DNA of 28,428 bases from a virus. Taxonomy: Duplodnaviria; Heunggongvirae; Uroviricota; Caudoviricetes. The stretch lies in IMG/VR virus record IMGVR_UViG_2534682139_000012. One strand, 5' to 3'. Below the pieces are notes generated by a model. The model saw only the letters and a list, made by a program, of their open reading frames with translations. It was not told the origin of the DNA and searched no databases. Each line of letters begins with the position of its first letter. Position 1 is the first letter of the stretch. Made by a program: the position numbers and the translations under genes. Of the stretch, positions 1-1,633 are shown in pieces.

Positions 1-888
1 ATGCCACTGCTGGATAAGCTGCGTGAGCAGTACGGGGTCGGACCGGTATGCAGCGAACTGCATATTGCCCCGTCAACGTATTACCACTGTCAGCAACAGC
101 GACATTATCCGGATAAACGCAGTGCCCGTGCGCAGCGCGATGACTGGCTGAAGAAAGAGATACAGCGCGTATACGATGAAAATCACAAGGTATACGGTGT
201 GCGTAAAGTCTGGCGTCAGTTGTTACGGGAAGGTATCAGAGTGGCCAGATGCACTGTGGCACGTCTCATGGCGGTTATGGGACTTGCCGGTGTTCTCCGG
301 GGTAAAAAGGTCCGCACTACCGTCAGCCGGAAAGCCGTTGCCGCATGCGACCGCGTAAACCGTCAGTTCGTGGCAGAACGTCCAGACCAGTTGTGGGTGG
401 CTGATTTTACCTGGGTAAGCACATGGCAGGGCTTCGTTTATGTGGCGTTCATCATTGATGTGTTCGCCGGATACATCGTGGGATGGCAGGTCTCATCATC
501 CATGGAAACAACATTCGTGCTGGATGCACTGGAGCAGGCGTTGTGGGCCCGTCGGCCGTCCGGCACAATCCATCACAGTGATAAAGGTTCTCAGTATGTA
601 TCGCTGGCCTACACGCAGCGGCTTAAGGAAGCCGGATTACTGGCATCAACAGGGAGTACTGGCGACTCGTATGACAACGCGATGGCGGAGAGCATCAATG
701 GTCTTTACAAAGCGGAGGTAATACACCGTAAGAGCTGGAAAAACCGTGCAGAAGTGGAACTGGCCACACTCACGTGGGTGGACTGGTATAACAATCGACG
801 ATTGCTGGAAAGGCTGGGCCATATTCCTCCGGCAGAAGCAGAAAAAGCTTATTATGCTTCCATCGGAAATAATGATCTGGCAGCCTGA
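1..888 (+). CDS. IS3-family transposase OrfB (DDE integrase-like catalytic subunit), possibly 5'-partial at the window edge
   Basis: The 295-aa translation carries DDE-type motifs (WVADFTWV, HSDKGSQY, DNAMAESINGLYKAE) and the conserved IS3-group C-terminus (LTWVDWYNNRRLLERLG); the N-terminus aligns with the post-frameshift part of OrfAB proteins. Confidence 0.85.
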   Translation: MPLLDKLREQYGVGPVCSELHIAPSTYYHCQQQRHYPDKRSARAQRDDWLKKEIQRVYDENHKVYGVRKVWRQLLREGIRVARCTVARLMAVMGLAGVLRGKKVRTTVSRKAVAACDRVNRQFVAERPDQLWVADFTWVSTWQGFVYVAFIIDVFAGYIVGWQVSSSMETTFVLDALEQALWARRPSGTIHHSDKGSQYVSLAYTQRLKEAGLLASTGSTGDSYDNAMAESINGLYKAEVIHRKSWKNRAEVELATLTWVDWYNNRRLLERLGHIPPAEAEKAYYASIGNNDLAA

Positions 889-930
889 GTTCACAGATAA
901 AATACTCTCCAGGAAACCCGGGGCGGTTCA
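1..930 (+). mobile_element. IS3-family insertion sequence, right-hand part only (the element continues upstream of the window); right end inferred near 928-930 (...GGTTCA)
   Basis: Contains the OrfB transposase ORF; integrase homology on the opposite strand stops abruptly at about 932, so the IS/phage junction lies at about 930; the terminal CA fits IS3-family ends. The exact inverted repeat was not verified. Confidence 0.7.
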
Positions 931-931
931 G

Positions 932-1633
932 TACAGTGCGGTTCTTCTTTCCTTTAGTTTTAACAAATGTGATTCGACCGGGCAGTACTTGAGATTGCTT
1001 TAATCCTTCTGCTTCACTCCACCGAGCACCAGTCGCAAGCCCAATACGGACAACAACCCCCAAATCTTTATTCCGTGACTCATCACACGCAATCAGAAGG
1101 CGTTCAATCTCATCTACATACAGAAACGCCAGTTCCTTTTCTTCCTCACGAAACTTGCGAATACCAGTCAGGGGGTTTTCACCAGACCACTCCCCAAGGC
1201 GCTTCAGTTCGGCAAAAACAGCATGTAGATATGACTGCTCGCGATTAACGGTTGCTTCACTAAGTTTTTTCTTCCCCTTGGGATTCCATTCTCCTGATAG
1301 CCTTCTTTCCCGATAAGTGGCAAACATATTTTTGTCAAACTGAGAAGCAAATGGATCTCCCAGCCTGGAACAAATCGCCTCAAGTTTGACTTTGCGCTCT
1401 GCACCAGAGGACAAGGTTTTACCGTACATCTCAAACCAACGAGCAATCAACTCAGAAAGACGAGGACCAGAACCATCTTGAAACTCGTCTCCAACTCTAC
1501 TATTCATTAAACGGCGCTCATAAGAGAGCGCCTCACTTTTTGTCGCAAACTGTTTACGAATGCGTTTTCCCGATGCCCCGTAGGGATAACATTCGCAAAG
1601 CCATTTACCTGATGGAATCTTACGAACCGACAT
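932..1633 (-). pseudogene. int: P2-like tyrosine integrase, 5' remnant (about 234 codons) truncated by the IS insertion
   Basis: The N-terminus (GKRIRKQFATKSEA ... GARWSEA ... FVKTKGKKNRTV) resembles P2 Int through the first catalytic Arg region. After RTV the reading frame runs into IS sequence, so the catalytic H-x-x-R and Tyr are absent from this copy. Confidence 0.75.

Follow-up and report, generated by a model that had tools for sequence, protein, structure and literature searches.

Insertions of IS629-group elements into prophage genes of STEC are textbook material. In O157:H7 Sakai, the three prophages with a disrupted int (Sp3, Sp11 and Sp12) were expected to be incapable of excision, and circular forms of them went undetected (Asadulghani et al. 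2009, PMC2669165). Sp13 of the same strain, whose int is intact, circularised spontaneously, and did so about 30-fold more after mitomycin C (PMC2669165). The loss of a gene to an insertion sequence (IS) can be undone in STEC lineages that have the IS-excision enhancer IEE: IS3-family elements are excisable there and the interrupted genes can be reactivated (PMC9397093, PMC9943667). [quoted passage not shown]

Here, we describe an integrase gene interrupted in this way, at the left end of a 28,428-nucleotide stretch of DNA (IMG/VR virus record IMGVR_UViG_2534682139_000012; the whole stretch is called the window below). The reading that we favor, at a probability of about 85%, is that a resident, multi-copy IS transposed into int of a P88/P2-like prophage, and that this has locked the prophage into the chromosome. 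The phenomenon is already known, both partner sequences are known, and the allele itself is already present in a public draft assembly.

The insertion sequence and its junction with int

The left end of the window contains the following features.

1–930, + strand: right-hand 930 bp (IS positions 381–1310) of a 1310-bp IS3-family element of the IS629/IS1203 group; 930/930 match to L016:1201–2130
1–72, + strand: ALIL frameshift pseudoknot, 3′ portion; Rfam RF01497 at 59.9 bits against a gathering score of 50, covering model positions 46–117 of 117
1–888, + strand: orfB, catalytic part of the DDE transposase, 295 codons plus stop; from the list of open reading frames (ORFs), with Pfam HTH_21, rve, rve_3 and rve_2
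905–930, + strand: right terminal inverted repeat, ending in GGTTCA; 22/26 positions match the left repeat of an identical full-length copy
931–933, no strand: GTA, predicted right-hand copy of a 3-bp target-site duplication, by analogy with the GAC duplication at the identical L016 copy
770–1633, − strand: ORF made by the insertion, 287 aa, with 234 integrase codons and 53 antisense-IS codons; from the ORF list, the divergent tail being seen by alignment
931–1633, − strand: integrase remnant, codons 1–234 of 333; 100% identity to WP_001300279.1 / Sakai ECs_2617 over aa 1–234

The first-pass annotation had proposed that an IS3-family insertion truncates the integrase, and this is borne out by the transposase with its rve and HTH_21 domains, by the ALIL pseudoknot and by the match, at all 930 positions, to a complete copy of the element. 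The rve match on window 1–888 has E = 1.7e-26, and orfB equals in length the Sakai gene product annotated as 'IS629 transposase OrfB' (295 codons). Besides the rve transposase, the element has the imperfect inverted repeats and TG...CA ends of the IS3 family, the left end being read on the L016 copy. That copy (L016:821–2130, from O103:H2 strain 12009) is complete at 1310 bp, has TG...CA ends and lies between the two copies of a 3-bp target duplication, GAC; it starts TGAACCGCCCCGG... and ends ...CCCGGGGCGGTTCA. Window base 1 corresponds to IS position 381, the ATG of orfB. The Rfam match to ALIL is cut at its 5′ side, so the IS is truncated by the window edge rather than by any biological event. 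Both orfA and the slippery site, which the 100%-identical full-length copy does have, lie beyond this edge in the window copy. The ALIL pseudoknot stimulates the programmed −1 frameshift that joins orfA to orfB, and it is also found in the RefSeq annotation of identical IS copies.

Copies with 100% identity to the 930-bp part are numerous in genomes of O103:H2 and O45:H2 and on their plasmids, and the window IS is a variant of the O103:H2/O45:H2 type. It shares 94.4% DNA identity over 930 bp with the annotated IS629 of O157 Sakai (95.6% when the full 1310 bp of the O103 copy is compared) and 94.3% with a copy that RefSeq labels IS1203 in strain 1613. On these figures, we speak of an IS629/IS1203-group element and claim no ISfinder name for it.

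Homology to integrase had been placed as ending at the IS boundary, at about 930/932. Alignment to an uninterrupted integrase gene (L001) sets the junction at exactly 930/931: the IS terminus ...CCCGGGGCGGTTCA ends at base 930, and the alignment is perfect from window 931 on and unrelated before it. At the insertion point, the uninterrupted gene reads ...ATCGGTACAGTG. The fusion frame leaves the integrase after codon 234 (…KKNRTV). Since the evidence consists of direct sequence identity and not of a statistical signal, chance is no issue here.

The allele is rare. A 31-base sequence spanning the right junction had no exact match in viral_contigs, genome_contigs or metagenome_contigs, and the junction was found in none of the complete RefSeq E. 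coli genomes; two complete RefSeq records do cover the whole 3.2-kb query, but in two pieces, with the IS elsewhere. When the 287-aa fusion ORF was looked up, the sole match was a draft contig, NMNF01000113.1 (L004; assembly GCA_002467925.1, recorded in two samples), which spans window 682–4461 with 100% identity over 3780 bp, has the same fusion ORF called, and ends inside the IS. A look-up of the neighbouring DUF2511 protein gave ten long contigs, none showing an IS; nine carry an intact 333-aa integrase, whereas in the tenth (L009) no integrase gene is called. When the missing 99 residues were used as a protein query, for a C-terminal fragment next to the IS left end, the matches were short proteins only, at no more than 87% identity, and none came from this insertion. 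One other IS hit in the same gene was seen, in strain 1613 (L002), where IS1203 follows codon 317. This insertion is simple, as the distance from yecA to the IS is what the intact spacing and the int 3′ remnant add up to.

We propose that the 1310-bp element entered int between codons 234 and 235, most probably by a simple copy-out-paste-in insertion. In that event, 380 bp more of the IS should lie left of the window, ending in the left repeat TGAACCGCCCCGG...; GTA should be duplicated, with the left repeat preceded by ...GAAATCGGTA / ...GAGGTGAAATCGGTA; and beyond the left IS end would follow the last 297 bp (99 codons) of int, the att repeat of attL and then yecA. The insertion is probably recent, since neither the remnant nor the IS differs from intact copies found elsewhere (100% identity in both cases) and no other decay is seen.

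Two other accounts of the junction deserve consideration. Misjoins classically occur at IS copies and the junction is absent from complete RefSeq E. coli genomes, which raises the thought of an artefact of assembly or window building, a chimeric join at a repeat. This idea was rejected, as the independent contig NMNF01000113.1 also crosses this junction, with 100% identity throughout its 3780 bp; together with the position of the join exactly on the terminal CA of the IS, this leaves a chimera highly implausible. The IS could also mark an IS-associated deletion or rearrangement, either an adjacent deletion or recombination between two IS copies. The IS would then have lost attL and the 3′ part of int as its neighbours, perhaps along with flanking host genes, and the grounding of the prophage would be irreversible. 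IS629 has been described as the cause of many deletions in O157 (PMC9943667), and the left side of the IS is beyond the window edge. Moreover, our alignment of the window to Sakai shows that Sp13 lacks about 13 kb of genes for head, lysis and baseplate, with a partial IS629 placed exactly at this gap. IS629-associated deletion has thus occurred in this family of prophages, and it is this case that leads us to keep adjacent deletion or rearrangement in view, at a low but appreciable probability. The right junction at the exact IS terminus, and the intactness of the visible IS, fit plain transposition equally well, and the independent insertion in int of strain 1613 was simple. Simple insertion is also the commoner outcome of IS3-family transposition. 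We therefore regard irreversible grounding by a deletion as unlikely, and we retain simple transposition into int as the working account.

The integrase remnant and its host prophage

The protein to which the remnant is identical, WP_001300279.1 (333 aa), equals ECs_2617 of Sakai prophage Sp13. The window copy retains the arm-binding N-terminus and the core-binding domain, Int_N; its catalytic domain breaks off after the first ~65 residues. Accordingly, Pfam finds Int_N complete (aa 58–162, E = 2.5e-32) and only positions 2–69 of the 172 in the Phage_integrase profile; the integrase family phrog_11531 is matched at aa 1–141. Among the catalytic residues, only Arg I (R204) and the beta-hairpin lysine cluster remain. 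The others, identified by motif, fall within the missing aa 235–333: THVLRHTF (H277..R280), LGH (H303) and MRYAH (Y312). This missing stretch matches the HP1 integrase catalytic domain (PDB 1AIH) at high identity. This agrees with the earlier view that the remnant lacks the H-x-x-R and tyrosine region. Thus, the gene has the arm- and core-binding domains of an HP1/P2 tyrosine recombinase and an incomplete catalytic domain. Because H277, R280, H303 and Y312 are all lost, it should be classed as a pseudogene and not as a functional member of the family.

A second copy of the integrase in the window, which would speak against a defect, was sought by tblastn, as was the missing C-terminus; neither was found. 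Relocation of the int C-terminus within the window, for example by an inversion, was dismissed on this result. A second recombinase was dismissed as well: the annotated intact relative has one integrase only, and the extra 2-kb segment of the window (see below) encodes an esterase. More broadly, this type of integrase was found in 525 of the 5426 complete E. coli genomes, in a median of one and at most two copies each, and it is at least 80% contiguous in all 525. As the gene is practically always single-copy in these genomes, no back-up copy is to be expected.

The host element is, by sequence comparison, a P88/P2-like (Peduoviridae) prophage of the yecA–leuZ locus of a Shiga-toxin-producing-type E. 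coli. Its closest relatives, at 99.2% identity, are prophages of O103:H2, O45:H2 and O121 genomes that sit between yecA and leuZ, a tRNA gene, and the nearest deposited phages are P88-like (P88, 520873). ORF-by-ORF comparison with a RefSeq-annotated relative (L005) shows a P2-type order: int, repressor, cox and gpA nickase, then the Q-P / O-N-M-L head module, the lysis genes and R-S-V-W-J-I-H-G, with sheath/tube, D and ogr beyond the window. Pfam Phage_GPA is found in the window. The genes nearest to int are as follows.

1639–1986, − strand: DUF2511/YebY-like protein; Pfam and PHROGs, 100% identical in the intact O103:H2 prophage
2016–2666, − strand: 216-aa membrane/Flk_N-like protein; Pfam and PHROGs, 100% identical in the intact O103:H2 prophage
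2685–3086, − strand: HTH repressor; Pfam and PHROGs, 100% identical in the intact O103:H2 prophage
3386–3589, + strand: Cox-like excisionase/repressor, intact, first gene of the early operon; phrog_575, E = 1.2e-27, 100% identical in the relative

The three genes at 1639–3086, which lie upstream of the integrase on its own strand and are all intact, probably form a lysogenic operon. The Cox-like directionality factor is present but lacks an active integrase partner. The prophage also has a C4 RNA/derepression module, as does Sp13.

The window has full-length versions of 36 of the other 38 genes of the relative L005, most of them at 100% identity. The two exceptions are LysC, with a 3′ end altered by a 2-kb insertion, and gpG (tail-fibre assembly), which runs off the window end. 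The 2-kb insertion, which encodes the esterase, is not found in the closest chromosomal relatives. A long-decayed cryptic prophage was ruled out, given how many of these genes are full length and identical to those of the intact relative. Within the visible window, int is the only lesion; the right third, with sheath/tube, tape measure, D, ogr and attR, lies beyond it. In the intact relative, a perfect direct repeat of 124 bp, in which the 3′ part of leuZ is included, marks the two ends of the prophage. Its int-proximal copy is located ~100 bp past the int stop codon, which would put attL of the source genome on the far side of the IS and so outside the window.

Capacity for excision

A tyrosine recombinase without the tyrosine nucleophile and the HxxR residues cannot cleave DNA. 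The truncated protein, made of 234 integrase residues and a nonsense tail of 53 residues, may retain binding to att DNA, but it would be incapable of cleavage and rejoining. Int/Cox-dependent recombination between attL and attR would then fail, leaving the prophage locked in the chromosome. The conclusion that the prophage probably cannot excise with its own integrase, already drawn in the first-pass annotation, is well supported, because HxxR and the tyrosine are missing, no C-terminus is present elsewhere in the window and the integrase is single-copy; there is also the precedent of the int-disrupted Sakai prophages (PMC2669165). It is a strong inference and not a demonstration, and no feature of the window speaks against it.

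It is conceivable that the prophage nevertheless leaves the chromosome at a relevant rate, through excision of the IS promoted by IEE, through an integrase supplied in trans by a related prophage in the same host, or through RecA-dependent recombination between the att repeats. Each route has something in its favor. Excision of IS600 by IEE does restore lacZ in O121:H19 (PMC9397093), and several functions of the defective Sakai prophages are complemented by other prophages (PMC2669165). The perfect 124-bp direct repeat with 3′ leuZ sequence, which flanks the intact relative, would allow rare RecA-dependent loss of the prophage. Sakai itself is said, in work of Kusumoto et al. from 2011, to carry IEE. 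Yet despite IEE and many other prophages in that strain, its int-disrupted prophages gave no circles (PMC2669165 for the circles). Two copies of this integrase type in one genome are almost never seen, and all three routes are expected to be rare per cell. We consider departure at a relevant rate rather improbable, and IEE, RecA and similar routes do not restore efficient self-excision in the bulk population.

A narrower proposal concerns a subpopulation. By analogy with the cases above, the lock may be reversible in some cells if the host has iee and if the insertion is simple. Taken further, the insertion could act as a reversible lock, in which IEE removes the IS in a small subpopulation, wild-type int is restored and mobility is switched on and off; we think it quite doubtful that this is its role. 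If it were true, the cells concerned would regain a 100% wild-type integrase in an otherwise complete, possibly SOS-responsive P2-like prophage, a situation analogous to the delayed-lactose phenotype produced by IS600 in lacZ of O121:H19. In the cells that stay locked, induction would make the prophage replicate in situ and the cell lyse, but the prophage genome would not be released.

On the preferred reading, transposition into int with the prophage locked in place, the consequences are chiefly for annotation. The prophage should be scored as integrase-negative (grounded), though nearly everything else that is visible looks functional, and its cargo, such as the NanS-p-like esterase, would then be fixed in the chromosome and not mobile. 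The locus adds a further example of IS629-group elements shaping the STEC prophage pool, a process already well described. Its practical value is modest; the possible reversal of the lock by IEE is the mildly interesting angle.

Comparison with known systems

The window IS agrees with IS629/IS1203 of EHEC in the ALIL pseudoknot, the TG...CA ends, the 3-bp target duplication (seen at the identical copy) and the 295-codon orfB. Like them, it is multi-copy in STEC genomes and often located inside prophages.

The uninterrupted form of the integrase belongs with the HP1/P2 subfamily, with which it shares the order of arm-binding, core-binding and catalytic domains. Its aa 165–331 align to the catalytic domain of HP1 integrase (1AIH, E = 4.6e-75), and it aligns to the integrase of PDB entry 5C6K over aa 57–329. 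Measured against 1AIH, the window copy stops at the equivalent of residue 70 in the 170-residue chain.

Phages P88 and 520873, which are Xuanwuvirus-like relatives of P2, are co-linear with the window at about 95–96% identity over 70–79% of its length. They share its gpA, ParM, portal, terminase, capsid and tail genes; unlike the window prophage, they have an intact integrase and no IS.

Among the Sakai prophages, Sp3, Sp11 and Sp12 are likewise int-disrupted elements of a STEC genome in which no circular form was detected (PMC2669165). These are lambdoid and have further defects, whereas the window prophage is P2-like and has int as its sole visible lesion. Closer still is Sp13 (O157:H7 Sakai, CP-933T-type, P2-like), which occupies the same yecA–leuZ locus and has the same ParM/ParR-like genes. 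Its integrase is identical over the part present in the window, and DNA identity is ~98% over 3.8 kb, from int to the early region. Sp13 is also damaged by IS629, but there int is intact, the element excises and circularises (PMC2669165), and most morphogenesis genes have been lost to a deletion associated with IS629. The window prophage is the reverse of Sp13, with a broken int but intact genes for head, lysis and baseplate.

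Insertion sequences in related prophages

The integrase gene that is broken in the window has been interrupted independently in E. coli strain 1613, by an IS1203 element located directly behind codon 317 (L002:3610-5879). The Tyr motif MRYAH is retained in this copy of the gene, and the strain 1613 integrase might still be active; RefSeq labels it a pseudogene. Sp13, the sister prophage of O157 Sakai, carries a partial IS629 copy (L018:2737-3806) at the exact site where ~13 kb, from the portal to the tail-fibre genes, is missing. These genes are kept in the window prophage but absent from Sp13, and the loss from Sp13 is an IS-associated deletion.

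The intact relative found between yecA and leuZ is flanked by a perfect direct repeat:

L005:1239-1362 and 37902-38025, 124 bp

Within each copy are the 55 nt at the 3′ end of tRNA-Leu (leuZ), together with a terminator-like hairpin. In the same relative, the interval from ogr to the right-hand repeat holds a hok/gef gene as well as an element of the IS481 family.

A 2-kb esterase segment

In the window, tail gene R is separated from the lysis genes by a segment of ~2 kb that the closest O103:H2 relatives lack.

20273-20422, LysC gene (Rz1-like), C-terminus altered
20406-22400, ~2-kb segment
20458-22335, +, ORF within the segment

The product of this ORF is 625 aa long and combines a SASA (sialate O-acetylesterase) domain with the domains DUF1737 and DUF6645. 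Because this product is 79% identical to ECs_2746 of the lambdoid Sakai prophage Sp14, it is a NanS-p-type esterase, here carried by a P2-like prophage. A DUF6645 protein is also listed in O104:H4-type P2-like prophages. The match of LysC to the relative's protein is confined to the first 50 of 65 residues, owing to the 2-kb insertion.

Early-region gene calls, partition genes and regulatory RNAs

3163-3369, +, 68-aa ORF between the repressor and cox genes
5973-6047, +, isrK Hfq-binding sRNA
6083-6170, +, C4 antisense RNA
6227-6436, 'derepression protein', 70 aa
9833-11105, +, ParM and ParR-like 'plasmid stability' genes

The 68-aa ORF matches PHROG 3431, 'Arc-like repressor' (E = 1e-28). For the same stretch in relatives, RefSeq instead places a hypothetical protein of 45 aa on the other strand (window 3180-3314, -), and one of these two opposing calls is probably wrong.

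The partition genes, whose ParM has StbA_N and ParM_N domains (E = 8e-82), lie downstream of replication gene A, as does the ParM/ParR-like pair of P88 and Sp13. The prophage that carries them is integrated in the chromosome.

Both RNA matches score above the Rfam gathering threshold, lie just upstream of the derepression gene and fall inside an ORF at 5916-6533. At the same place, the Sakai annotation has a 205-aa 'antirepressor' ORF (ECs_2630) that overlaps the isrK and C4 RNAs; this ORF may not be a real gene. Together, isrK, the C4 RNA and the derepression gene look like an RNA-controlled antirepressor module in the style of P1 and P4. A module of this kind has been suspected as the cause of the mitomycin C inducibility of Sp13 (Asadulghani et al., PMC2669165).
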